Source: Candidatus Kuenenia stuttgartensis
Lineage (GTDB): Bacteria; Planctomycetota; Brocadiia; Brocadiales; Brocadiaceae
NCBI RefSeq assembly: GCF_900232105.1
Contig: NZ_LT934425.1
Coordinates: forward strand, 4,020,001 to 4,052,000
Reading direction: 5' to 3'
Length of the DNA stretch: 32,000 nucleotides
Shown here: in pieces, positions 855-20,686 of the stretch
Numbering within the stretch: the first letter of the stretch is position 1
How the letters are laid out: each line of letters starts with the position of its first letter
Program-made: the position numbers and the translations under genes
Notes under the pieces: generated by a model
The model's database searches: none
Seen by the model: the letters and a program-made list of their open reading frames with translations, nothing else
What the model was told of the DNA's origin: nothing

Positions 855-1169
855 TTAGGCAATGCTATTATCAAAAATATCTTCTTTCAGTAAACGGCTT
901 CCATGCAGTACCGTAACGATCATTACTTTATCTTTTGCTTCATCATACCGGTAAATTATCCGATAATTGCCCATAATCAATTCCCGATACGGCGTATTTG
1001 GAAATTCCGGTAAAAAACGTCCCGCATTGGGGAATAATTGCAATCTTTCTGTGGATTTAAAGATATTTTGGATAGTATATTGTGCGTATAAAAGGGAATC
1101 TCTTGCTATATAGTCATAAATACCTTCTGAATCTGATATGGCTCTTTCAGACCAGATTACTGTTGCCAT
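855..1169 (-). CDS. Type II toxin-antitoxin system toxin, RelE/ParE family
   Basis: 104 aa. The start MATVIWSERAISD..IYDYIA and the end ..YRIIYRYDEAKDKVMIVTVLHGSR are typical of ParE/RelE plasmid-stabilisation toxins. It overlaps the upstream small ORF by 13 nt. Confidence 0.8.
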   Translation of the reverse strand: MATVIWSERAISDSEGIYDYIARDSLLYAQYTIQNIFKSTERLQLFPNAGRFLPEFPNTPYRELIMGNYRIIYRYDEAKDKVMIVTVLHGSRLLKEDIFDNSIA

Positions 1170-1544: not shown

Positions 1545-3326
1545 TTATTTCTCACGTGCTTTTTCCTCTGCAAAGAGAGACCGTTGAACTATTTTTTTCT
1601 TTGTGCGTCCCTTACTTCTTTTCTTTTGAGGCGAAATAGCGGTAGGATTTGTTTCCTGAGATTCAATTTTCTCCTCATCCGCTTCAACTGGTAAATTGAC
1701 AATATTTAAACTATAATCCTCTTTCCCAAACTCGCACCTGCCAAGCAACATCTTGGGAATCTTTTTTATGGTGATATTAGCGTAACGATTTTCGCAAGCT
1801 TCCTGAAAAGATTTACAACAAATCAGAAGGCTTTCGTCCGGTTTCATTTCTTCGTGAATCTTATCCAGAGACTGTACCGTAACAAACTGTGTGGTGATAA
1901 AAATATAATCCTTTTCAGTGGAACGGCCTTGCTTCCAGTAAATATGCTCATCCGGGCAGTGTCTAAAACCTTCATGCTTTGCCATAGCTGCGGCGAGCAT
2001 ATCGGCATTGTAACGTTCGTCAATAATCCAGTTGCCATGTTTATCTTTTTTCAGCAAACTTGGGGCTAAGTAGTAATATTTGAAACCACCGCCGCCCTGC
2101 CAGTTCACAGCTTTTGATATGCCACCTTGATCCGTGCCGTCAACTACCTTTTTCAATCGCGGAAGGCAGTGGGTATGGCAATGCTCGCCAAGTTCAATGC
2201 CTATCCACCTGCGCCACATCTTATGGGCAACAGCAGCGGTTGTGCCTGAGCCGAGGAAGGAGTCCAGAACCCAGTCACCGGGGTTAGTGGCGATGTGAAT
2301 GATTCTTTTTAGGAGTCTTTCAGGTTTTGGTGTTTCAAAAGTGTCCTCAATACCAAAAAGGGCATTACATTCCTTTTTCGCTTCTTGGTTATGACCAACT
2401 TCCGAATTCGGCCACCATGTCCAAGCAGCAATACCTTCACTTTCAGAAAGGTATGTCTTTTTTCTTGGAACAGAATCACCATCTTTTCCGAACCAAATTC
2501 TACCTTCAGACAATAGCGTTTGGTAAACAGACTCAATATTACGCCAACAAGACCCGGGTCTTGGTTTATATTTTTTCCCATAAGGAGTAACAATTTCATA
2601 CATCTGATTAGGTCTAAACCCTTTTGCCATAAAATCGGCTGATATCCATGGCCCCTTGGGGTCGTTATCCGGATTTTTGTACCTGCTGAGTTGGTCTTCA
2701 GTTTGTTCAAGAATATTCAATTTTTGTTTAAATAAAGATATGTTTTTTGAAAAAACGAGTATATGGTCATGCCCTGCGCCAATTGTTGCCCTCATATCTG
2801 GTTGAATTCTCTTTTGCCACACAACATTAGCAACAAAATTGCTCCTGCCAAATATCTCATCACAGAGCACCTTCAAATAATGGCATTCATTATCGTCAAT
2901 TGTTATCCATAGAGTCCCGTCAGGGCGTAACAGCCTATGCAATATCTCAATTCTCGGCTTCATCAGGCTCAGCCATATTGAATGCTCAAGACCGTCATCG
3001 TAATGCTCAAAAGCGCTACCAGTGTTATAGGGCGGGTCAATACAAGCGCACTTTATCTCTTCTGCAAAATCCTGTTCAAGGGCTTTCAGCGCAAGGAGAT
3101 TATCGCCGTGGATGAGCATATTACCCACCCCTGAATCCCCTCCCATGAGGGGACTTTTATACTTCCCTCTCGAGATGAGGTTGGGGGTATTTTTATTCCC
3201 CTCTTGAGAGAAGCGAGGGGTGTGTCCATAAGACTTCTCAGGGTCTTCAATTAATATGCGCGGCTCCAGCTTTGGCTGGTTTTCCTTGCCTATCCAGGTG
3301 AGTTCGAGTTTTTGGTTTTTGGTCAT
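1545..3326 (-). CDS. mod: Beta-class N6-adenine/N4-cytosine DNA methyltransferase, type III Mod-like
   Basis: 593 aa. Motif IV IDPPYNTG lies N-terminal and motif I DSFLGSGTTAAVAHKM lies C-terminal, the beta-class order with a central variable region. The N-terminal KLELTWIGKENQ and NMLIHGDNLLALKAL are typical of Mod/N4-N6 MTases. A Res-like helicase follows downstream. Confidence 0.85.
   Translation of the reverse strand: MTKNQKLELTWIGKENQPKLEPRILIEDPEKSYGHTPRFSQEGNKNTPNLISRGKYKSPLMGGDSGVGNMLIHGDNLLALKALEQDFAEEIKCACIDPPYNTGSAFEHYDDGLEHSIWLSLMKPRIEILHRLLRPDGTLWITIDDNECHYLKVLCDEIFGRSNFVANVVWQKRIQPDMRATIGAGHDHILVFSKNISLFKQKLNILEQTEDQLSRYKNPDNDPKGPWISADFMAKGFRPNQMYEIVTPYGKKYKPRPGSCWRNIESVYQTLLSEGRIWFGKDGDSVPRKKTYLSESEGIAAWTWWPNSEVGHNQEAKKECNALFGIEDTFETPKPERLLKRIIHIATNPGDWVLDSFLGSGTTAAVAHKMWRRWIGIELGEHCHTHCLPRLKKVVDGTDQGGISKAVNWQGGGGFKYYYLAPSLLKKDKHGNWIIDERYNADMLAAAMAKHEGFRHCPDEHIYWKQGRSTEKDYIFITTQFVTVQSLDKIHEEMKPDESLLICCKSFQEACENRYANITIKKIPKMLLGRCEFGKEDYSLNIVNLPVEADEEKIESQETNPTAISPQKKRSKGRTKKKIVQRSLFAEEKAREK
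3123..3158 (-). repeat. 36-nt G/C-tract hairpin element, copy 1, in frame inside mod (encodes KSPLMGGDSGVG)
   Basis: acccacccctgaatcccctcccatgaggggactttt matches 5430-5465 at 35 of 36 positions. It contains a cccctc/gagggg stem. Two more similar hairpin-like units follow in 3159-3236. Confidence 0.85.
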
Positions 3327-3436
3327 ACCGAATGCCTTTGCAGTTTCACGCTAAATACTTACTCATTGACAAGCGTGATCTCGGACCCTGTAATTGAGTC
3401 TCTGAATAAATGTACCTGTTCCGTTTATTTCTTTCA

Positions 3437-4768
3437 TTAATCCCAGAGTGAAGACTCTTTAGTATAGTTAGTTAATGAAGAGATGGATTCTTGATGCCCT
3501 TTATTATATTGCGCATTGTATGTATCTATTAAAACTTTGAGACTTAGCATCTCATAGATAACTCTTGCTACATCTGCAAAAGGCACCTCGACATTAAAAT
3601 TACCTTTCTTGATTTTTGCAAAAGGAGTTTCAGTACTTAACTGTTCCGCTTTCGCTCTTAAACAAGTATCCACAATCACCCATCCGTCTTTTTCAAATAT
3701 TTTTAATATTTCAGTAAGATTTATTGTGTAAGTTAAATAAATTCTTCCAATCATTAATGCAGTGATATCTTCTATTGAAAGTGGAAACACTGAGAAAGGG
3801 GCCAAGTTTGCAGAAAAACCACGGCGGTCTAAAGAATTGAAAGAGAAAACAACGTCATTATTTTGTTCCCAACGGTTTTTAACACTTTCATGTCTTGAGT
3901 CAAAATATTCTATGACCTTGTCCATGTCATCTAATTTCTCGAAATCAACGCACTCTAAAATCATATAGTTGCCAATCAATTCGCTAGAACAACACGTTTT
4001 TCTCGCTTTTGCAATAATGTTCTTGGCTATTGCTAAATAATTTTTCAGAGGAACATCACAAGGCAGAATTGTTAGCTTTGTGCCCTCATATTTCGTTATT
4101 CCAGTGTTAAAAAACTCTACTACCTCTTGCAACCTTTCCTTTTGTCTTGTTATCCTTCGTCCCCTTTTCTTTGACGACTTTACTTCTATAAGTTCAATGT
4201 CACCATTATCGTCTATTGTAGTTATATCCCCAGTTCTTAAAAAGTTGCTAATATCATTTATTATCGCCCTCTTTTTTTCATGAAGAATTTCTTTTGAAAA
4301 AACAGATAACTCTGTAATTAATCCCTCGTCAAGGCGAACAGGACCGCTATCCTCTTTGTTTGATAAAGCAGATAAAATCACCCTATTATAGTTTAAACAC
4401 CTCCATGCTATTCCATCAATTATAGTCTTTAATGACTGATTGACTAGAAGGACAGCGCCTATCTGGTTCTGATATGTCCTTATTTGCTTCTCCCTATCTT
4501 CTTTATGTAAACTTGAATCAGCCGCAAGTTTCTCTAACATAATCTTCATGGCATCAATAGCCTTGGTATGTTGCAATAAGTCGCCTAATATGGATAATTG
4601 AAGCTTATAAATAGAGAATTTACTTTTACTCCTTTTTCGGCTTATGAACAAGTAATCCTCAATTATTTCCTTGTAATCTTCTTGTAATGGCATCCATATG
4701 GCATTAATCAGACGGGAATAATCTCGTTTTTTACTACCAGCGGTAACTATTTTTTGTTTAAATTCCAT
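3437..4768 (-). CDS. Hypothetical 443-aa protein with a PD-(D/E)xK-like nuclease motif; orphan, AT-rich
   Basis: Long uninterrupted ORF. The segment TGDITTIDDNGDIELIEVKSSKKRGRR fits the D...(D/E)xK restriction-endonuclease-fold pattern. I recognise no other family. Spot counts of 60-nt lines give about 30% GC here (lines 3481, 4201) against about 47% in mod (line 2101). Confidence 0.6.
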   Translation of the reverse strand: MEFKQKIVTAGSKKRDYSRLINAIWMPLQEDYKEIIEDYLFISRKRSKSKFSIYKLQLSILGDLLQHTKAIDAMKIMLEKLAADSSLHKEDREKQIRTYQNQIGAVLLVNQSLKTIIDGIAWRCLNYNRVILSALSNKEDSGPVRLDEGLITELSVFSKEILHEKKRAIINDISNFLRTGDITTIDDNGDIELIEVKSSKKRGRRITRQKERLQEVVEFFNTGITKYEGTKLTILPCDVPLKNYLAIAKNIIAKARKTCCSSELIGNYMILECVDFEKLDDMDKVIEYFDSRHESVKNRWEQNNDVVFSFNSLDRRGFSANLAPFSVFPLSIEDITALMIGRIYLTYTINLTEILKIFEKDGWVIVDTCLRAKAEQLSTETPFAKIKKGNFNVEVPFADVARVIYEMLSLKVLIDTYNAQYNKGHQESISSLTNYTKESSLWD

Positions 4769-4956
4769 AATACTTATCAGTTTGTTGATTTATTCTGTAA
4801 ATAGGCTCTGTCTTGCAAATATACATTCATCGCCGCAGCAAGCGATTCTGTCAGTTTGATCTCAGTCTGGCATTTCGGACAAGTAATCATTGGCTCTGTT
4901 ATATATATCTCATAGAGAGTGTCGACAAACCGGCTTCCCGACGAGCAACGCAATCC

Positions 4957-5003
4957 GTAGCTGGTTCTCCTTACCTATCCATGTGAGTTCTAATCATTTG
5001 TTG
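4957..5003 (-). pseudogene. Remnant of a second mod 5' end (LELTWIGKENQ) directly after the SNF2 stop
   Basis: 4961-4993 ctggttctccttacctatccatgtgagttctaa aligns with 3276-3308 ctggttttccttgcctatccaggtgagttcgag at about 85% identity. The minus-strand translation QNNK*LELTWIGKENQLRI compares with the Mod start TKNQKLELTWIGKENQPKL. Similarity ends after about 16 codons. Confidence 0.6.
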
Positions 5004-5021
5004 TTCTGTATTATTGGTATT

Positions 5022-7916
5022 TTAAATAAGTTTCCATCTAACGGTAAACAATTCTGCTTTTTCAATCTTTTGTTTTAAGCGTGCCTCTATCTCATCTATC
5101 AATCTTTCCTTCCTGTTATCTACGTCATCCTGTGTCTGATACAAATTTAAACGCATGGTGTTTCGTTTCTTTTCCATTTCCTTTATCTGCCTGTGTGCCG
5201 TTACCTTCTCTTCAAGATTGAGGATTTTTTTGGCTTCTGTCTTTCGGCATTTTATCTCTTTATCCAATTCTTTCAATTCAATTTCCATGCTGCTTTTCAC
5301 ATCTTCTGCCCATCTGTCTAATTTTTCCATCTCTGTATCGAAGAAACCTGCATTACGTACAGCATTCATTTGCAGGATTTCGGCTTGCTGTTTTTGGGCT
5401 ATTTGATTTATGAGATTTTTAACATGAGAACCCACCCCTGAATCCCCTCCCAAGAGGGGACTTTTTGATGCGGGAAGGGAAAATAGCCTTTTGCATTGCT
5501 CAATATCCAATTCTGTACCTTCATCTGTCACGCTACATAACAAAATTTGATCTTCAGTTTCAAACGAATTAATTGTTAAGTTAATTACAGATAACCAGCC
5601 CGACTTTGCTATAAGGGACTCTAAAATATTTATTTTCTTGATAGAGTCTGAGTAATTAAATGCTAACTCCTGAACTACTAATGATAAAGACTTTGTTTTT
5701 TCGATAATACGCTGAGCCAAAGGATGCCCAACTCTATAAATGTTTACGTCGTCAATATTCTTTCCCAGTTTGTAGGGGCCAGGATGTATCTTTTCGTCAA
5801 CAAAAGGGTTTTCACGTAAAATAAAAGAATGCTCGTCTATAGCGAAATCAGCGTAAGGTTCAAGGTAGTGTTTAGTAATTTCCCATAACCAATATTCATA
5901 CTTGGACAAATATTCTTTACTCTCCTGTAAATTAACGCGTAATTTTTCATGTACCTCCTCATCGAAATTTTCTAACAAATTATTTCTGGCGTCTTTCATA
6001 CGGTCTTCAATCTGTTCTTCCAGTTCCTTTTGTAACTGGTCAAATAAGGACTGTATTTCTCCCGAAGTTCTGCAATGCTGGTAAATCTGTGCAATCCGTT
6101 TTTCAAAATTAACACCTGATTCAATACTACCCAATACTTCATCGCTTGCCCCGAAAATGCCGTCAAAAAGCTTGAATTTTTCTTTCAATAACTGATAAAC
6201 CCTCTGGTCTGCGGCATTACTCTTATTTAGGAAATTTACGACAACCACATCAAACTTTTGCCCATACCGGTGGCATCGCCCGATTCTTTGTTCGATACGT
6301 TGAGGATTCCAGGGTAAGTCATAATTTACTACCAGAGAGCAAAATTGCAGGTTAATACCTTCTGCGGCGGCTTCTGTGGCTATCAGGATGACTGCCTCAT
6401 CTCTGAAATAATCTACTATTGCAGCCCGCTTATCGGCACTTTTTGAGCCTGTGATTCTGTCTGTGCCAAGATGCCTCTCGATCCATTTTTTATAGATTTC
6501 TTTGGATTTCTGATCGTTGTTCGAGCCGTTAAATAAAACTATCCTGTCCTTGTGCTCAGTATTTTCTAAGATGCTATTCAGATATTCTTGTGTTCTTGTA
6601 GATTCGGTAAATATGATGGCTTTTTTATTACCACCCAGACGTTCTATTTCAGCAAAACCTTTTTTCAGGGCGGTCAGGAGAACCTCTCCCTTTGAATTTC
6701 GGGTAATAGACCTGGCAAGATATTGAAATCCCTTCAGGTCGTTGATTTCCTTTTTGATGTTTTTGATTTCCTCTGGAGTGTAAAGTTCTTCCTTTGTTTC
6801 AGTAACGGGTTGATTTTCTTCTTCAGCATCCTCCCATTCATCCTTAATTTCATCATAAGATTCAAAATCCTGAGACACTATCTGCTCAATGTCTTCCTGT
6901 CGCCCCTTGGTAGTTACGATATTTTCAAGTTTTATTGCAAGGGCGTCTAATGTCCCTGAAATAGCAAAGGTTGACGATGCCAATAATTTCCTCAAAATTA
7001 ACGTCATGAGTTGTCTTTGACCTGGCGGAAGTGCAAATAAATTTTCCCTTTGTAAATAGGCTGAAACCAGGTCATAAAGCCTTTGTTCATCAGGAGACGG
7101 GACAAACTCTTGCGTTATTGCCATTCTATTGGTGTATTTTACATATTCTAATACCTGCCTGCGGAGCGTCCTTATACAAATGGGTTTTAGTCTTTCTTTA
7201 AGATTATGGAAATCATTTTCATTCGCTAATCTGGCAAACTGATTTTTATAACTCTTTAAATCACCAAAGGTATAATCATCAATGATACTGACTAAACCAT
7301 AGAGTTCTAACAAAGAATTTTGGAGCGGCGTTGCGGTAAGCAGCATTTTTGGAGCGTGGGCTACGGCATTTTTGACGGCAGTGGCAATTTTATTTGACGG
7401 CTTATAAACGTTTCTTAATCTATGTGCTTCATCGATGACCACTAAGTCCCAAGGGATATTTTTGATATAAACATCTTTAGCCCTTGCAAAATGGTATGAG
7501 CAAATGATTATTTCGTTCTGGTTGAAGGGGTTTAAGTTTCCTTTTTTAATTTCCTGATTAAAAGAAGGCGTTTCCAGTATAAGTGATGAAAGGTAGAATT
7601 TATCCAGTAATTCCTGATTCCATTGCTTACGAAGGTTTGATGGCACTATAACCAGAATTTTCCGTTTTCTTTCAGCCCATTTTTGAGATATAACCAGACC
7701 GGCCTCGATGGTTTTCCCCAGACCTACCTCGTCCGCCAGTATAGCACCCTTTGAAAGCGGGGAATGGAAGGCAAATAAAGCAGCCTCGACCTGATGCGGA
7801 TTTAAGTCTACCTGGGCGTCTAAAAGAGAAGAAGCCAGCTTTTGCAAACTATCTGAAGAACTGCGTTTTGTAAGCTCAAAAGCAAAATATTTTGCGTGGT
7901 AAGGCGTTATTTGCAT
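5022..7916 (-). CDS. SNF2-family (RAD54-like) helicase/ATPase, 964 aa, with a C-terminal coiled-coil
   Basis: Motifs found: DLNPHQVEAALFA, motif I ILADEVGLGKT, motif II VVIDEAHRLRN, helicase-C AAEGINLQ...NYDLPWNPQRIEQRIGRCHRYGQK. The tail is K/E-rich and coiled-coil-like. Confidence 0.9.
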   Translation of the reverse strand: MQITPYHAKYFAFELTKRSSSDSLQKLASSLLDAQVDLNPHQVEAALFAFHSPLSKGAILADEVGLGKTIEAGLVISQKWAERKRKILVIVPSNLRKQWNQELLDKFYLSSLILETPSFNQEIKKGNLNPFNQNEIIICSYHFARAKDVYIKNIPWDLVVIDEAHRLRNVYKPSNKIATAVKNAVAHAPKMLLTATPLQNSLLELYGLVSIIDDYTFGDLKSYKNQFARLANENDFHNLKERLKPICIRTLRRQVLEYVKYTNRMAITQEFVPSPDEQRLYDLVSAYLQRENLFALPPGQRQLMTLILRKLLASSTFAISGTLDALAIKLENIVTTKGRQEDIEQIVSQDFESYDEIKDEWEDAEEENQPVTETKEELYTPEEIKNIKKEINDLKGFQYLARSITRNSKGEVLLTALKKGFAEIERLGGNKKAIIFTESTRTQEYLNSILENTEHKDRIVLFNGSNNDQKSKEIYKKWIERHLGTDRITGSKSADKRAAIVDYFRDEAVILIATEAAAEGINLQFCSLVVNYDLPWNPQRIEQRIGRCHRYGQKFDVVVVNFLNKSNAADQRVYQLLKEKFKLFDGIFGASDEVLGSIESGVNFEKRIAQIYQHCRTSGEIQSLFDQLQKELEEQIEDRMKDARNNLLENFDEEVHEKLRVNLQESKEYLSKYEYWLWEITKHYLEPYADFAIDEHSFILRENPFVDEKIHPGPYKLGKNIDDVNIYRVGHPLAQRIIEKTKSLSLVVQELAFNYSDSIKKINILESLIAKSGWLSVINLTINSFETEDQILLCSVTDEGTELDIEQCKRLFSLPASKSPLLGGDSGVGSHVKNLINQIAQKQQAEILQMNAVRNAGFFDTEMEKLDRWAEDVKSSMEIELKELDKEIKCRKTEAKKILNLEEKVTAHRQIKEMEKKRNTMRLNLYQTQDDVDNRKERLIDEIEARLKQKIEKAELFTVRWKLI
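5430..5465 (-). repeat. 36-nt G/C-tract hairpin element, copy 2, in frame inside the SNF2 gene (encodes KSPLLGGDSGVG)
   Basis: acccacccctgaatcccctcccaagaggggactttt has the same orientation and reading frame as copy 1. Confidence 0.85.
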
Positions 7917-12260: not shown

Positions 12261-12412
12261 AATTATTCGTAACACTTTAGTTTTTTGAAAAATTCCAATA
12301 ATCGCAATGTGGGGGCGAAGCATTTGCTTTAAATTGTCATAAATGCGTTCATACCCAAACGGGAAAATGCTTCGCCCCTACTTTTTCAAAAAACTAAAGT
12401 GTTACAATTATT
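12261..12412. repeat. MITE-like palindromic element, family A, copy 1
   Basis: The ~30-bp terminal inverted repeats are aattattcgtaacactttagttttttgaaaaa (12261-12292) and tttttcaaaaaactaaagtgttacaattatt (12383-12412). A 14-bp perfect inner stem pairs ggggcgaagcattt with aaatgcttcgcccc. Confidence 0.65.
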
Positions 12413-12444
12413 CCGAAAGGTTGCGCCGGCGTATTATCGATAAA

Positions 12445-14173
12445 TGTTAATCCTAAATCCTGCAAACGATTTTCGCAATGCGAAAATCAGTATTTTCCAC
12501 TACCAAGATTGGCAAAAAGCGATAACAGATATCCGTTTTTTAGCAATTGTGGTAGCGCTATTGTACTACTTTAAACAAAAAGACATGGGAAATTGTCGGA
12601 AACGTGCTCTCTGATGCAATGAAAATCAAGATAGGGATGTACTGTCTCCATCTGCGGTATACTTACCACTCTCAAAAGACTAAAAAAACGAAATACAACG
12701 TCGGTTTTCTACTGAAAAACTACATCCAGTGACATGCGTTCCCACTTTTCCCATTCCTCCTGATGGAGAAATTTCTCCGGCAATTTTAATGTCATCTGCC
12801 GGCTTCTCTCCACCAGTTTCCCTGCCACACGGATTAACCACAGTCTCATCGTCTTTACTTCCCACTTTTGTATCACTCCACCACTGAGCAATCCCATCCA
12901 CTTCAAAAGATTATACGCTAACACCGCACACTGAAATAGCGCAGCATTGGCCAAAAATTCACCCGTACGTATGTGCCCCGCATTCATCTGTCCTTTACTC
13001 TCTTCTATCAAAGTCTCGCAGGTAGCCCTCTTTCCATAACAACGATGCGCTTCCATCGGACTTAACCGCTCCGTTGTAACGTAACAAAAATACTCATACA
13101 CGGACACTTCTACTAATTTCTTTTCTCTTTTGACCAATTGCCGCACTGCCACAAAACGTCTCGCACGATCCCACCCTGCACATCGATACCAAAATTCAGC
13201 CTGTTCCCATCCTGGCTCCCCTTTCACCTCATTCCATTTCTGCCCTTCAAGCAATCCTTCCAGATTCTTCAGCTTTACCTTAATCAGATATCCCGCCAAT
13301 ATTGACTCAAGGTATTCAAGTAATTCTCCGGTAAAAAAACCGCTGTCTCCTCGAAATACCACCCTTACCCCCTTATTCATGTACGCCATACATTCCTTCA
13401 TGAACTCTACTACTCCGTTACTCGTGTAGGCGCTTCCACAGCGGAACCAACTATGTAATACCTCCTTTGTTTCTGCAATAAATGCCATTAAGGGATGATA
13501 CGCCTTCTGCCCCTTCTTGTGCGGATTATATCCTACCTCTGCACCCTCCTGTTTCCCATATACACCATCTACGGTAGAATCAACATCTATCCATACTTCG
13601 CAAAGAGCACTCCTGAGTTTATGGCCTGATCTCACCGCACGCTTCCATATCTTTCCCCTAAACCGGTGGATCACCCCCGTCAGTTCCACTATATCTCCCT
13701 GACTCGCCAGCTTCATAATACGTCCTATCGTAGTATCTACAGGTACCTCTTTCCACCCGGACATCTTCTTCAATACCTCATCTGTACACACCTTCATCAC
13801 CTCTACCATCGATGTCGCCCCTGCTATCAACCCTATCACTACCATTTGTACCGCATCGACAAACTGATACCGGGCATTTGCTCCACGATCCTTATGGACC
13901 GCTTCATGGACTCTCTCCCGGAACATCAGCTTACCCATAAAATTCAATACCGGTAAAAGCCCTGCATGTACCGTTAAGCCTTTCCCGCTCATCTCTGCCT
14001 TGATTTTCGGTTGTCTTTTGCTGTATTTTTTTGCTATATTCTTCATCGAAATGGTGAATCTCCTTTCAGGTGTTTTTTGTTATCAATATACCGCCGAATA
14101 CCTTGGAAATCCTACCATTTCAATCCTATTCCTGCAACAAGGCTTTGCCTTGTTTGCAGGATTTAGGTTAATA
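12445..14173 (-). mobile_element. IS1380-family insertion sequence (~1.73 kb)
   Basis: The terminal inverted repeats are ttaatcctaaatcctgcaaac (12447-12467) and gtttgcaggatttaggttaa (14152-14171), with a 16-nt perfect core and a 1-nt indel. ATAAA is a possible 5-bp target duplication (12440-12444 and 14174-14178). The element encloses a single transposase ORF. Confidence 0.7.
12709..14046 (-). CDS. IS1380-family DDE transposase
   Basis: 445 aa. N-terminal GKGLTVHAGLLPVLNF, then WIDVDSTVDGVYGKQEGAEVGYNPHKKGQKAYHPL, FRGDSGFF, YGKRATCETLIEESK and LAYNLLKW match the IS1380 family pattern. Confidence 0.85.
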   Translation of the reverse strand: MKNIAKKYSKRQPKIKAEMSGKGLTVHAGLLPVLNFMGKLMFRERVHEAVHKDRGANARYQFVDAVQMVVIGLIAGATSMVEVMKVCTDEVLKKMSGWKEVPVDTTIGRIMKLASQGDIVELTGVIHRFRGKIWKRAVRSGHKLRSALCEVWIDVDSTVDGVYGKQEGAEVGYNPHKKGQKAYHPLMAFIAETKEVLHSWFRCGSAYTSNGVVEFMKECMAYMNKGVRVVFRGDSGFFTGELLEYLESILAGYLIKVKLKNLEGLLEGQKWNEVKGEPGWEQAEFWYRCAGWDRARRFVAVRQLVKREKKLVEVSVYEYFCYVTTERLSPMEAHRCYGKRATCETLIEESKGQMNAGHIRTGEFLANAALFQCAVLAYNLLKWMGLLSGGVIQKWEVKTMRLWLIRVAGKLVERSRQMTLKLPEKFLHQEEWEKWERMSLDVVFQ

Positions 14174-14286: not shown

Positions 14287-14678
14287 GGTTCAAGTTTGCA
14301 ACTCAATGTCATTAAGTTAAGAATTATTGCAACACTTTGGTTTTAAAAAAAACGTATTACCGATAAGCTCCGTAGGAGCAACCTGTTTGTAGTAGATAGG
14401 GATACCATAACAGATATTAGCTCCGTCAGGAGCGGCCTGTCTTCCTGTCAATCATATACAGGCCGCTCCTACGGAGCTATTTACCTGTTGAATTTTATTG
14501 TGCTACAAACAGACCGCCCCTAAAGGGGCTACATTGTTTTTTATATCCCCTTGAATTTTTCAAATAACTAAGGTGTTAAGAATTATTTTATTAAAAACAA
14601 CCCCCTTTTTCCCCCTTTATTAAGGGGACTTTTCTGGCAGGTTGCTTAACTTAATGACATTGGTTTGCAACTTGAACC
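14287..14678. repeat. Nested palindromic MITE-like structure: outer inverted repeats enclosing a family-A copy
   Basis: The outer arms are ggttcaagtttgcaactcaatgtcattaagttaa (14287-14320) and ttaacttaatgacattggtttgcaacttgaacc (14646-14678). The inner family-A arms are gaattattgcaacactttggtttt (14321-14344) and caaataactaaggtgttaagaattatt (~14561-14587). The core holds direct and inverted copies of agctccgt(c)aggagcggcctgt, forming a ~20-bp hairpin at 14419-14479. Confidence 0.65.
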
Positions 14679-14887
14679 CCACGTTTTATATTGTTACTAC
14701 CTGCTGGTATGGGGGATTTAGCCATTAAATACCTGGCGCGGCCTTTGGCCGCAACCAAATTCGAAATACGAAATAAATTCAAATGACAAAAAACCCAATG
14801 CTACAAACTTTACGTAAACCTCATCTAATCAATGTCTTACGATTATGCATTTTGAAAAACTAGCATAAAAAACAAGAAGTTGATCAT

Positions 14888-16805: not shown

Positions 16806-19502
16806 ATGAAAACAAATATTGGACCATTAAAAGATAACGACACAATAGCAATTATTGGCGGCGGGCCTGCGGGGAGTTTTTTTGCACACTTTGCATTAAA
16901 ACTGGCAAAGGAACTGAATAAAAAGATTACCATTTACATTCTCTGCGGAAAGGATTTTATCCAGAAAGGTCCTGTTGGCTGTAAAATGTGCGCGGGGGTA
17001 TTGTCGGAGACCCTTATTGCGAAAATGGAACAGGAAGGAATTGTACTTCCGACGTCACGCATTCAAAATGAAATAGACGGATATTTCTTTCAGTCGCAGG
17101 AACGCGGCATCTCTCTCCATCACCCGCTTCCGGGCCATAAACCAAGAATTATTACCATTTTCCGCGGAGGGGGGCCAAGGTATTCCCTCTCTGACGTAAA
17201 CATTAGTTTTGATGATTTTTTATTAAACCACAGCGCTTCTATGGGAGCGAAGGTGCTTTCCGCGATTGTAGAAGAAATTGAGTTGCCGGAAAATCCTCAG
17301 CATTTAGTAAATATTGTATACAGGGAGGAAGGCATACGAAAAAAAATATCGGTAAGCCTCGCCGTTGGCGCATTCGGGGTAAATACGTCGCTTACCAAAA
17401 GAATCGTGGGGAAGAAACATGGGTATCGCGAACCGCGGTCGATACGCACATGCAATGCGGAACTCCCGCTGGGGAGGTCTTATATCAGGGAGCGTTTCCA
17501 AAGAACTATCTACATATTTTCACTGGGAATCAAGCCAATTAAATTTGCAGCGCTTATACCCAAAGACGACTACGTTACCGTATCCCTCGTCGGCAATGAA
17601 GACATCACAAAGGCGCATTTAATGCAGTTTATAAAGCACCCCCGAATACGTGAACTTTTGCCGGAAGGGTGGTCGCTGCCGGAAAACGTGTGCATCTGTT
17701 TTCCCAAAATCCCGGTCGCGCATGCCGCACACCCCTATTCTGACAGATTTGTGATAACGGGAGATGCAAGTATTTCCCGTACCTATAAAAACGGCATTGA
17801 ATCGTCTTTTGAAACTTCCCGGTTAGCCGCTTACGCCGCTTTTTATCACGGCATTTCAGAAAAGGATTTTAAGGAAGCGTATTATACGCCGGCGCTGAAA
17901 TTACTTGCGCACGACAATTTTTACGGCAAACTTATATTAAACCTTCACGATTATATCACCTCAAAAAAACACATCGCAAACACGCACATCGACTACCTCT
18001 GCAAACACAAGGATACCTGGGGGGCGCAGCGCATCAATGCCATTTTGTGGAACATGGTTACCGGCAACATCGGGTATAAGGAAATATTTTACGATGCAAT
18101 GAGTTTTCGGTTACAGGCAGTTATGTTTCCTCATAATTTCAGATCCTCGGTCAAAATGGTGTATGGGTATTTCCGCAAACTGACCAATACAGATCTTGCG
18201 GGAACAGCCAGATCGAAAGAAACACCGGCATTGGGTCCCCTGAAAAATCAAAGCACCGTAGTTATAATCGGAGGCGGGCCTGCAGGTACCAGTTGCGGGA
18301 TTGCCCTGAAGCATCTTGCCAAAGAGAAAAATATTGACATAAACGTTATTTTATACGAAATGAAGGATTTTGAAGGTGGAATTGAACACAATGAATGTGC
18401 CGGAGTACTCTCCCATCCTATTGAACATATCATGGAGGATACCTTAAAAATCCCCTTCCCATGGTATCTGGTGAAAAGGGATATACCAGGTTATTATCTT
18501 CACGCAAATGGGCAAACGATAACGCTTGAAGGCAACGGAGAAATATCTTACGCCCTTCGCAGAATTCAATTTGATGCATATCTTCTGCAAAAAGCAAAAG
18601 AAGCCGGCGTTACCGTAATCAAAAGCAAGGTTACTGATATAGAAATCGGACGGGAAAAGATTGTTATCTATAGCGAAACCCGGCATACCAGCGCCGATGT
18701 TGTAGTGGGCGCCTTCGGTATAGAAGAAGGTACACATAAATTATTTGAAAGCGGCACACCGTATAAATCCCCGAAATATTTACTCTCCATATTAACGAAA
18801 TTTCATCCCAAAGGGAAATACCATGATTTAGAAAATACCGATGGATATATCCATGCCTTTTTATCGTCGATAAAAGAAATAGAGTTTGGCGCAATCACCC
18901 CAAAGGCAGACCACTATACCATCAACATTGCAGGGGCTAAAATTTCTTCAAAATCTATGGATAATTTTTTGCAGCAATCCGAGGTAATGAACCAGCTTCC
19001 GGAGTGTTTTAAGGATGCTTTAGGACACTTCGACTATCATAGGGGGTGTTTTCCGGTGAAACCTGCAAAAAATCCCTTTGGCGACAGATATGTAATTATC
19101 GGGGATGCGGCAGGCCTTATCCGTCCGTTTAAGGGCAAGGGAGTGAATGCGGCATGTTTAATGGGCATTAAAGCGGCGGAAACTATGATGAACGTTGGCA
19201 TATCAAAAAGGGCTTTTCATACCTCATATTTTAACAGTTTTTACGACGTCATTAAGGACTTGCCCTATGCAAGAGCAGTCAGGCGCTTTATTATATGGGG
19301 TGCGTATTATGGTTTTTTGGGGAGTGTTATTCAGATTGCCAAAAGCAACCCTGAATTAAAAGGGGCATTGTTTGACAGCGTTTCAGGGAGAAGGACGTAC
19401 CGAAGGATACTTATTGATGCATTCAGCGTGCGATTATCTTTCAAGATATTCGCTGCTATTATTCAATGTTTCATTTCAAAGATAACAAAAAAACAGCGCT
19501 AA
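16806..19502 (+). CDS. 898-aa FAD-dependent oxidoreductase made of two tandem geranylgeranyl-reductase-like halves
   Basis: There are two dinucleotide-binding motifs, IAIIGGGPAGSFFA (aa ~14) and VVIIGGGPAGTSCG (aa ~485). Each is followed by C-x-x-CAGVLS (CKMCAGVLSE / HNECAGVLSH) and later by a GD motif (RFVITGDASIS / RYVIIGDAAGL). The C-terminal tail is hydrophobic. Confidence 0.75.
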   Translation: MKTNIGPLKDNDTIAIIGGGPAGSFFAHFALKLAKELNKKITIYILCGKDFIQKGPVGCKMCAGVLSETLIAKMEQEGIVLPTSRIQNEIDGYFFQSQERGISLHHPLPGHKPRIITIFRGGGPRYSLSDVNISFDDFLLNHSASMGAKVLSAIVEEIELPENPQHLVNIVYREEGIRKKISVSLAVGAFGVNTSLTKRIVGKKHGYREPRSIRTCNAELPLGRSYIRERFQRTIYIFSLGIKPIKFAALIPKDDYVTVSLVGNEDITKAHLMQFIKHPRIRELLPEGWSLPENVCICFPKIPVAHAAHPYSDRFVITGDASISRTYKNGIESSFETSRLAAYAAFYHGISEKDFKEAYYTPALKLLAHDNFYGKLILNLHDYITSKKHIANTHIDYLCKHKDTWGAQRINAILWNMVTGNIGYKEIFYDAMSFRLQAVMFPHNFRSSVKMVYGYFRKLTNTDLAGTARSKETPALGPLKNQSTVVIIGGGPAGTSCGIALKHLAKEKNIDINVILYEMKDFEGGIEHNECAGVLSHPIEHIMEDTLKIPFPWYLVKRDIPGYYLHANGQTITLEGNGEISYALRRIQFDAYLLQKAKEAGVTVIKSKVTDIEIGREKIVIYSETRHTSADVVVGAFGIEEGTHKLFESGTPYKSPKYLLSILTKFHPKGKYHDLENTDGYIHAFLSSIKEIEFGAITPKADHYTINIAGAKISSKSMDNFLQQSEVMNQLPECFKDALGHFDYHRGCFPVKPAKNPFGDRYVIIGDAAGLIRPFKGKGVNAACLMGIKAAETMMNVGISKRAFHTSYFNSFYDVIKDLPYARAVRRFIIWGAYYGFLGSVIQIAKSNPELKGALFDSVSGRRTYRRILIDAFSVRLSFKIFAAIIQCFISKITKKQR

Positions 19503-20164: not shown

Positions 20165-20686
20165 AATAATAAAATATTTGTAACTTACTGAGCCGGCATA
20201 GTCAGAACCAAATAAGATAAGATATTAAAAACACGAAATTCGAATGGCGGGGGATTAAGGGGGTGGAATTGTCTGCGGAGGAAATCTGGGAGGTTTATAA
20301 CATGAATAGCCATAAGTTTTTCTTCTCATTCCTACGTTCTGCGGGAATGCATGTCACGAAACAGGATAAAATTGTCCATTTGACCAGCCTGCGGAGCGTG
20401 GGAAAGAGGGTCAAATTTGTTTTCATAATAAAGGGGTAGTTGAATCGATGGAGAAATCCAGTCCACCCCCTGCACCCCCACGGCAACGTCAAAGTCACCC
20501 TATGAAAGACGCGGATCAAGAATTTGTGCCAAAAGCTCCCGTCAGTAAGTGGAGAAGAAAGTAAAAAACGATAGAATTCCCATATAAATCGGCAAAAATG
20601 AGCAAAACAAGCAAAATGTAACGGGAGTATCCCTGTGGTAACGAAAGAGATAGTAAAAAAATAAAGGCTTTTTTTTGTTCTCTACA

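Follow-up and report, generated by a model that had tools for sequence, protein, structure and literature searches.

Palindromic repeats read in frame and the Kuenenia locus

Several families of short palindromic repeats are known to be translated within bacterial proteins. Rickettsia palindromic elements (RPEs; Ogata et al., cited in PMC3733652) belong to these families; RPE-1 is about 100-150 bp long. Many intragenic dimers of repetitive extragenic palindromic (REP) units, which encode 20-30 aa, are located in genes for helicases and repair proteins, and the short RPE-4 and RPE-6 form a CGTC-tagged class (Di Nocera et al. 2013, PMC3733652). REP doublets are the mobile unit (Bertels & Rainey 2011, PMC3116915), and in Cyanobacteria and Bacteroidetes, tnpAREP genes of subclass 2.4 contain in-frame REPs (Quentin et al. 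2018, PMC6006769). Here, we analyze a 36-nt hairpin element that is translated within two neighboring defense genes of Candidatus Kuenenia, encoding the DNA methyltransferase Mod and an SNF2 helicase. The DNA studied, hereafter the window, is a stretch of 32,000 nt (contig NZ_LT934425.1, positions 4,020,001 to 4,052,000, forward strand). We consider it probable that the 36-mers belong to a dispersed repeat that is non-autonomous and forms hairpins, of the kind represented by REPs, REP doublets forming hairpins (REPINs; bacterial interspersed mosaic elements, BIMEs) and RPEs, whose translation adds a passenger peptide to a disordered loop.

The Kuenenia units resemble REPs, REPINs and BIMEs in being hairpins of 20-40 nt that are dispersed, mostly intergenic and often located just after gene ends. 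As in those families, they form inverted pairs and clusters, and occasional in-frame copies add 20-30 aa, often in helicase or repair genes. They differ from REPs in that there is no GT[AG]G/CGTC tag, in a 10-nt C-rich tail that is set 2-4 nt from the stem, and in that a crude motif screen of the collected loci identified no cognate REP-associated tyrosine transposase (RAYT) for the Kuenenia repeat. In addition, one consensus is common across phyla here, whereas REPs are usually species-specific. Like RPEs, the units are palindromic repeats translated in frame, as additional surface segments, within many unrelated genes without destroying function, but sequence and host lineage are unrelated: the Kuenenia unit has no CGTC tag, its host is a planctomycete and it has no Rfam match. 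The REPs of tnpAREP genes likewise lie in frame in peripheral loops and overlap in taxonomic range (Bacteroidetes, other phyla); their hosts are transposases and they have GT[AG]G feet, whereas our hosts are restriction-modification and helicase genes. Terminal inverted repeats at the ends of unit pairs are shared with miniature inverted-repeat transposable elements. The small dispersed repeats (SDRs) of Nostoc, which Elhai et al. reportedly described in 2008, are said to be very short, mobile-looking repeats nested in one another and in hairpins; nested insertions occur in our material too (locus L165, below), in other sequences and another lineage. Intragenic repeats of the REP and RPE type are thus already known, and the Kuenenia/Brocadia repeat is a new family of this kind. 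Its sequence was not found in the literature searched by sequence substrings, and neither of the two Kuenenia genome papers reports it.

Near-identical units in Mod and SNF2

The two host genes and the units that they contain are as follows.

1545-3326, minus strand: Mod, type III-like N6-adenine DNA methyltransferase, 593 aa (PF01555; PADLOC MTase_III, E 7e-189)
5022-7916, minus strand: DrmD-like SNF2 helicase, 964 aa (DISARM_DrmD_b, E 2e-212, a match under the NCBIfam curated cut-off)
3123-3158, minus strand: reverse-type 36-nt unit in Mod, aa 57-68, KSPLMGGDSGVG (family model 48.5 bits, E 1e-11)
5430-5465, minus strand: reverse-type 36-nt unit in SNF2, aa 818-829, KSPLLGGDSGVG (family model 51.3 bits, E 1.8e-12)

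A first-pass annotation of the window had reported that the two 36-mers match at 35 of 36 positions with equal orientation and frame. Sequence comparison and shuffling bear this out. The copy in Mod (ACCCACCCCTGAATCCCCTCCCATGAGGGGACTTTT) and that in SNF2 (…CCCAAGAGGGG…) differ at one base, and not a single match within three mismatches was obtained in 100 dinucleotide-preserving shuffles (0 expected by chance). Both open on the first base of a Lys codon (3158 in Mod, 5465 in SNF2) and therefore have a common reading frame; as annotated, both proteins contain KSPL(M/L)GGDSGVG, at the residues listed above. In the SNF2 unit, the spacer TTCA separates the hairpin TCCCCTC-TTGG-GAGGGGA from the tail GGGGTGGGT; the unit is located in a variable linker bounded in our alignment by RLFSLPA and IAQKQQ. 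Each 36-mer folds into a 7-9 bp G/C hairpin (about -12 to -15 kcal/mol). Since G/C-rich shuffles of any kind fold well too, these energies correspond to modest z-scores of -1.3 to -2.3. Beyond the 36 nt the flanks of the two copies have nothing in common, and both host ORFs are long and intact despite the units. The 35/36 match is shown to reflect near-consensus copies of one repeat family, not a local duplication.

A unit consists of a C-rich tail (ACMCACCCCT), a spacer of 2-4 nt, a 7-bp G/C stem and a loop of 4-6 nt. Forward units are 34 nt long and read (H/P)TPxPSQEGN, and reverse units are 36 nt long and read KSPLLGGDxGVG. They usually come in inverted pairs, forming a composite with 10-nt terminal inverted repeats (ACACACCCCT…AGGGGTG(G/T)GT); such forward and reverse pairs are present at every Brocadia-type site and in the Kuenenia intergenic copies. 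The search pattern CACCCCT-N5-CNCTC-N2-6-GAGGGGA has exactly three matches in the 32-kb window (3193-3226, 3123-3158 and 5430-5465; 0 expected by chance). A covariance model built from 68 aligned units, our family model, is significant in the window for these three only (51.3, 48.5 and 36.4 bits). The three intact units have a 7-bp G/C stem and a 4-nt loop, and this palindrome is conserved over the 68 aligned units. The remaining parts of the Mod insert are listed here.

3193-3226, minus strand: forward-type 34-nt unit, aa 34-44, GHTPRFSQEGN (GACACACCCCTCGCTTCTCTCAAGAGGGGAATAA) (pattern match; family model 36.4 bits, E 1.8e-8)
3159-3196, minus strand: decayed forward-type unit, aa 44-56, NKNTPNLISRGKY (codon-by-codon comparison; family model not significant)
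3123-3224, minus strand: whole Mod insert, aa 35-68, 34 codons in place of the native DKNSE (orthologue alignments)

Two further hairpin units had been proposed to follow the Mod copy (3159-3236). The insert is better described as an array of a forward unit, a decayed forward unit and the reverse unit. Of the two proposed units, one is a clear forward unit, 3193-3226, with a weakened stem (CTTCTC/GAGGGG); the other, 3159-3196, is decayed and not significant, and it is the counterpart of an intact CACACCCCCAACCCCCTCTCGAGAGGGGAGTAT in L158 and L163. In the window, the reverse units are thus intact and the forward units are decaying. The ends of the Mod insert, (A)CACACCCCT…AGGGGTGGGT, represent the 10-nt terminal inverted repeat, and its outer units are able to pair as a long hairpin (fold -52 kcal/mol, z -2.5). 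Mod residues 37-66 have an AlphaFold predicted local distance difference test score below 50 and no secondary structure, and the insert is predicted to lie in a disordered loop. An Rfam scan of 2900-5700 (E<=10) returned only a chance snoRNA match and no family.

Orthologues with empty and filled sites

We compared Mod with 120 database homologues and 80 metagenome loci. Most relatives read KSY-GDKNSE-NMLI or KSY-HAKHRVTDKDIFD-NRLI at the insert site. In one subclade, most of the named members of which are anammox bacteria, arrays of one to four units occupy exactly this position: one unit (GHTPRPSQEG) in P0001 (90% identity), P0011 and P0038, two (GHTPNPLSRGEYKSPLLGGDSGVG) in P0021, P0029 and L163, and three or four in the window, P0013, P0005, P0023 and L160. 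P0001 does without two of the units, including the reverse unit. As the insert is absent from most Mod orthologues and variable in copy number, it is not native, and it is old and dynamic. The likeness to RPEs drawn in the first-pass annotation holds in this respect, with intact ORFs carrying units and most Mod orthologues lacking the insert. Elsewhere, the same Mod linker is occupied by unrelated repeat-derived peptides (the P0035/47/63/76 family, the P0072/102/109 family, P0077/L224, L181 and L226), and it must therefore be either very permissive or a preferred landing site.

The corresponding SNF2 linker varies likewise: distant orthologues have 8-9 aa there and the window has 12 aa. Brocadia types gain up to ~90 extra aa, and with their arrays the anchored segment spans 121-139 residues versus 55 in the window. 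A decayed copy of equal length, INLLSGGNEMGN, is found in P0122, whose SNF2 is 85% identical; P0001 and P0122 together suggest that the unit copies are dispensable.

Intergenic copies and breadth of the family

We next consider copies outside of the host genes. The first-pass annotation had pointed to intergenic relatives at 14622-14633 and 20249-20266, which we delimit as follows.

14599-14633, plus strand: degenerate intergenic relative (AACCCCCTTTTTCCCCCTTTATTAAGGGGACTTTT) (family model E 0.36 for 14599-14632)
20249-20266, plus strand: half-unit relic (GGGGGATTAAGGGGGTGG), spacer and tail without the hairpin (0 expected by chance)

The shared sequence is real: 14599-14633 has AAAAGTCCCCT-N6-AGGGG and 20250-20262 has GGGGATTNAGGGG in common with the unit, with 0 expected by chance in either case. 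Both are, however, weak relics, the first degenerate and the second partial. In the alignment to L242, the half-unit relic is located a few bases from a synteny breakpoint with the complete genome of Candidatus Kuenenia stuttgartiensis CSTR1 (CP049055.1). Synteny ends at ~20243 (L242 ~12430), just before the relic; at the breakpoint CSTR1 has a CGAAATACGAAA-type repeat and then a complete intergenic forward and reverse pair (L242 12301-12375). Another short repeat (ttcgaaatacgaaataaattc; window 14757-14780, L242 ~12400-12440) is found near insertion sequence (IS) ends and at this strain breakpoint.

The motif does recur elsewhere in the genome. A 213-kb sample of K. stuttgartiensis, comprising the DNA around ten copies of the window IS, contains five unit sites, 5/5 intergenic, a density that extrapolates to roughly 100 sites per genome. 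In species-representative genomes, at least 120 stretches contain the pattern. The matches listed include Bacteroidota, Planctomycetota, Nitrospirota, Nitrospinota, Chloroflexota and Ignavibacteria relatives, as well as Balneolaceae, Calditrichaceae, Gemmatimonadales and others, and the pattern is multi-copy in several viral contigs. In these matches conservation goes past the specified bases: aACA or aCC precedes them, stems are perfect and certain loops are preferred, so that they are relatives rather than chance hits. A copy in an Anaerolineales contig (L044) is identical to the window SNF2 unit at 36/36 positions. Among the matches listed for other Planctomycetota, 15/19 are intergenic, and the in-ORF cases are a Mod with its DUF559 neighbor (L082) and a 429-aa ORF (L074), which we read as a glycosyltransferase. 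Real internal insertions into unrelated proteins exist as well, such as that in the 1029-aa ORF of L100, where the unit lies within a kinase-like HRDLKPEN…DFG motif. About two thirds of the reading frames through units are open. Orthologues without the insert, variable arrays, the intergenic sites of the 213-kb sample and the occurrence in many phyla together support the earlier proposal of a dispersed miniature repeat that tolerates in-frame insertion; it is a cross-phylum repeat without the canonical REP tag.

The Brocadia-type cluster as an apparent hotspot

According to the family model, 12 units are present in the Brocadia-type locus L164, distributed over 6 in-frame sites, and its remaining 8.5 kb are free of them. 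The sites are the SNF2 linker, the Mod N-terminal linker, mid-Mod, the Mod C-terminal tail, the C terminus of a DUF559 protein and the N terminus of Res, the type III restriction subunit gene product. At the mid-Mod site, Kuenenia and all distant orthologues are empty, with ISKAVN directly followed by WQGGGG, and L164, L165, L166 and L160 are filled by a forward and reverse pair of 96-99 nt. About five near-identical direct copies are kept in Brocadia-type clusters. A restriction/helicase cluster that is repeatedly colonized by palindromic repeats represents an apparent hotspot in need of explanation.

The arrays themselves contain further insertions. A second small repeat (GTTCGGCTGAGTGCTCACGACGAAG, read VRLSAHDEV) is found inside the forward-unit loop at L165 1583-1644, at L164 10646-10707 and in the L164 SNF2 array, and in L165 a further unit is nested in a reverse-unit spacer, so that repeats lie inside repeats. 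The 'NGDLFAA' of Kuenenia Res was considered as a decayed unit and rejected, its DNA likeness being too weak.

Spread of the repeat and difficulties of this interpretation

The units reside mostly in intergenic DNA of Kuenenia and other Planctomycetota and have colonized surface linkers of the proteins encoded by the Brocadiaceae SNF2-Mod-Res cluster. Because they are G/C-rich they seldom hold stop codons, and copies persist where the inserted length preserves the frame. They may spread by means of a single-strand hairpin-recognizing transposase (Y1/RAYT-like) or by gene conversion among copies, and ongoing homogenization or selection at the DNA or RNA level would keep them near consensus. For annotation, this means that Gly/Pro-rich stretches in these anammox defense proteins are probably repeat-derived loops, rather than functional motifs or a switch.

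Several observations weigh against this interpretation. The units contain none of the sequences GTAG, CTAC, CGTC and GACG and hence no canonical REP tag. A crude regular-expression screen for the HUH…Y motif in all collected loci revealed no mobilizing enzyme, and no clear target-site duplication was seen in comparisons of empty and filled sites. A dispersed repeat of this kind does not explain the concentration of units in this restriction cluster: given the Kuenenia background density, SNF2 and Mod together should hold 0.11 sites, and 2 are seen (Poisson P ~0.006, in a test picked after the data had been seen). The Mod allele tree is compatible with a single gain and with repeated gains. In a neighbor-joining tree of the 440-residue Mod core downstream of the linker, the filled alleles are scattered, which we suspect reflects the variable central region; in a tree of conserved Mod segments they are grouped but interleaved with empty ones, with 7 state changes. 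Finally, the near-identity of units at orthologous sites, in genes that are ~27% diverged in DNA, exceeds what a purely neutral passenger would retain and calls for gene conversion or selection.

The inverted repeats of the window IS (12709-14046) are unrelated to the units, and no parent element was seen. The only trace of a Y1_Tnp domain is a broken Y1-transposase-like gene at L243 16812-17245, with a weak PF01797 match and YVLMDNPYHLL at the expected HUH position. A degenerate inverted pair (ACACATCCC…GGGGATGTGT, 17454-17530) is located ~400 nt from it, and the broken gene is a possible remnant of a mobilizing enzyme.

Conservation at the nucleotide level

Of the alternatives, the one that survives best, although we regard it as unlikely, is that the hairpin is a selected nucleic-acid element kept in the defense operon, where it could terminate antisense transcripts, tune translation or stability through an mRNA structure or G-quadruplex, or bind a protein, with the peptide being incidental. 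Between the window and L164, the third-codon positions of two Mod units are identical at 22/22 sites, compared with 58-59% in flanking Mod, and at the flanking match rate such an outcome has a probability of ~1e-5. At mid-Mod, the orthologous unit is translated as KKVPSSEGKQGWV in L164 and, in another frame, as KESPLLGGEIGVG in L166. These frame differences, the predicted disorder and the third-position identity argue that the peptide is a passenger and that it is the nucleotides that stay near consensus. This state could be maintained by selection or by gene conversion among copies, and concerted evolution among copies would give the same conservation.

Other features are consistent with a selected element. 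The reverse units of the window have remained intact while the forward ones decay, and units are concentrated in the SNF2, Mod and Res genes. On the plus strand, antisense to the genes, the SNF2 unit forms a terminator-like hairpin followed by CTTTTT, and the Mod reverse unit is terminator-like as well; both are among seven terminator-like sites in 2.8 kb, where 1.5 are expected. The coding strand of the reverse units reads GGGAGGGGATTCAGGGGTGGG, a canonical G-quadruplex pattern. In every unit the tail CCCACCCC also holds CCACCC (e.g. 3124-3129, 5431-5436), a match to the CC(m6A)YCC motif that the methylome study of Kuenenia MBR1 reports as methylated (PMC5854607). Roles as terminator, G-quadruplex or methylation site are possible functions suggested by these sequence patterns.

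An essential role, on the other hand, appears to be opposed by close alleles that do without the element: P0001 lacks the Mod reverse unit, the SNF2 unit of P0122 is decayed, and the window forward units are themselves decaying. Copy number and position vary freely between lineages, and other lineages have the linker filled by unrelated repeats. The more specific proposal that a ~35-nt cross-phylum hairpin is actively maintained as nucleotides in anammox SNF2-Mod-Res genes (terminating antisense transcripts, forming an RNA or G-quadruplex structure, or being recognized by a conserved enzyme) we rate as more doubtful still. If true, a mobile repeat would be coupled to regulation or diversification of the restriction system; nucleotide-level conservation that turned out to be selection would mean that a mobile hairpin has been recruited into a defense operon.

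Native sequence, local copying and recombination

It is very improbable that there is no repeat family at all, the peptide being an ancestral linker dodecapeptide or the SNF2 copy a gene conversion from Mod. The first-pass annotation had recognized that the same peptide at the same position in distant taxa would make it native sequence. Brocadiaceae orthologues do have the same peptide at the same sites, but it is absent from distant orthologues, as from most of those of Mod, and it is conserved as nucleotides rather than as peptide. In P0121, whose SNF2 is 96% identical, the unit reads ISPLLGGDLGVG, and the window SNF2 copy is therefore closer to its own Mod copy than to its orthologue; the P0121 differences are, however, single-base changes. 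Identical 36-mers in unrelated intergenic DNA and in other phyla (L044, above) and flanks without resemblance past 36 nt likewise speak against native sequence or local copying, which the family census largely refutes.

Equally hard to credit is the recombination switch proposed in the first-pass annotation, in which the direct repeats would delete 2.3 kb, create an SNF2::Mod fusion (by our coordinates SNF2(1-829)::Mod(69-593)) and remove the intervening ORF443. The geometry is right, since orientation and frame agree and recombination would yield an in-frame product of 1354 aa. The predicted rearrangement was not encountered, however. Six independent assemblies encode an identical Mod, with gene order unchanged in all; where they overlap the window they are 99.9-100% identical to it and differ only by an IS at ~12457-14167. 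The deletion is seen in none of them, L001 and L002 being the only two that span both copies. A synthetic SNF2::Mod junction query against 5.8 billion proteins returned no spanning match (best coverage 63%, all Mod fragments). Homology between the copies is limited to 23 + 12 bp, and Brocadia-type clusters hold their direct copies without collapse.

P0126, which combines SNF2 with a methylase domain, was considered as the predicted fusion and rejected as a different chimera: an N-terminal fragment of another methylase is joined to SNF2 from residue ~160 onward. The protein comes from a Brocadiaceae metagenome-assembled genome (11.5-kb contig), and its first ~110 residues comprise the other-methylase fragment and a helix-hairpin-helix glycosylase-like piece, joined at the SNF2 DEAH box. 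Either rearrangement in a pseudogene or chimeric assembly accounts for this protein.

In phasevarions, simple-sequence tracts in mod shift the frame on and off. The units resemble them in that a type III mod ORF contains, in its 5' part, repeats that vary with the strain, but all variants are in frame here, there is no simple-sequence tract (the sole output of Tandem Repeats Finder is a trivial repeat at 3308-3323, of 7 nt x 2.3), and Mod is identical and intact in the six assemblies. A CRISPR repeat would fit the 36-nt length, but the copies are translated and form no array.

Neighboring genes and mobile elements

The gene order at the locus is SNF2, ORF443, Mod, a small antitoxin with ParE, and an 891-aa type III Res gene that extends beyond the window start. 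The ParE toxin and its 62-aa partner are wedged between the type III Mod and Res genes (window 855-1169 and upstream; L001 11982-12472). ORF443 (3437-4768, minus strand) is located between SNF2 and Mod, inside the defense locus, and may itself be a defense gene; it has no match in Pfam, PADLOC, NCBIfam or PDB sequences. Directly past the SNF2 stop, 4955-4995 (minus strand) contains a relic of the Mod 5' end with the translation LELTWIGKENQ, which shares two exact 8-base runs with the real Mod start (~3275-3305) and is close to it in the rest. The relic indicates that the position of ORF443, between SNF2 and Mod, is a cassette slot. This slot contains a 491-aa ORF, a 780-aa ATPase and an AbiV-family protein in the Brocadia-type locus L164.

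The transposase of the IS at 12457-14167 is of the DDE_Tnp_1_4 type (12709-14046), and inverted repeats of 35 nt lie on either side of the element (12261-12295 and 14553-14587). The IS is missing from L001, an assembly that is otherwise 99.9% identical, and it has many copies in the CSTR1 genome. An identical transposase is found in 211 index blocks, CP049055.1 alone holding it in at least 9 places, and the element looks like an active, polymorphic IS.

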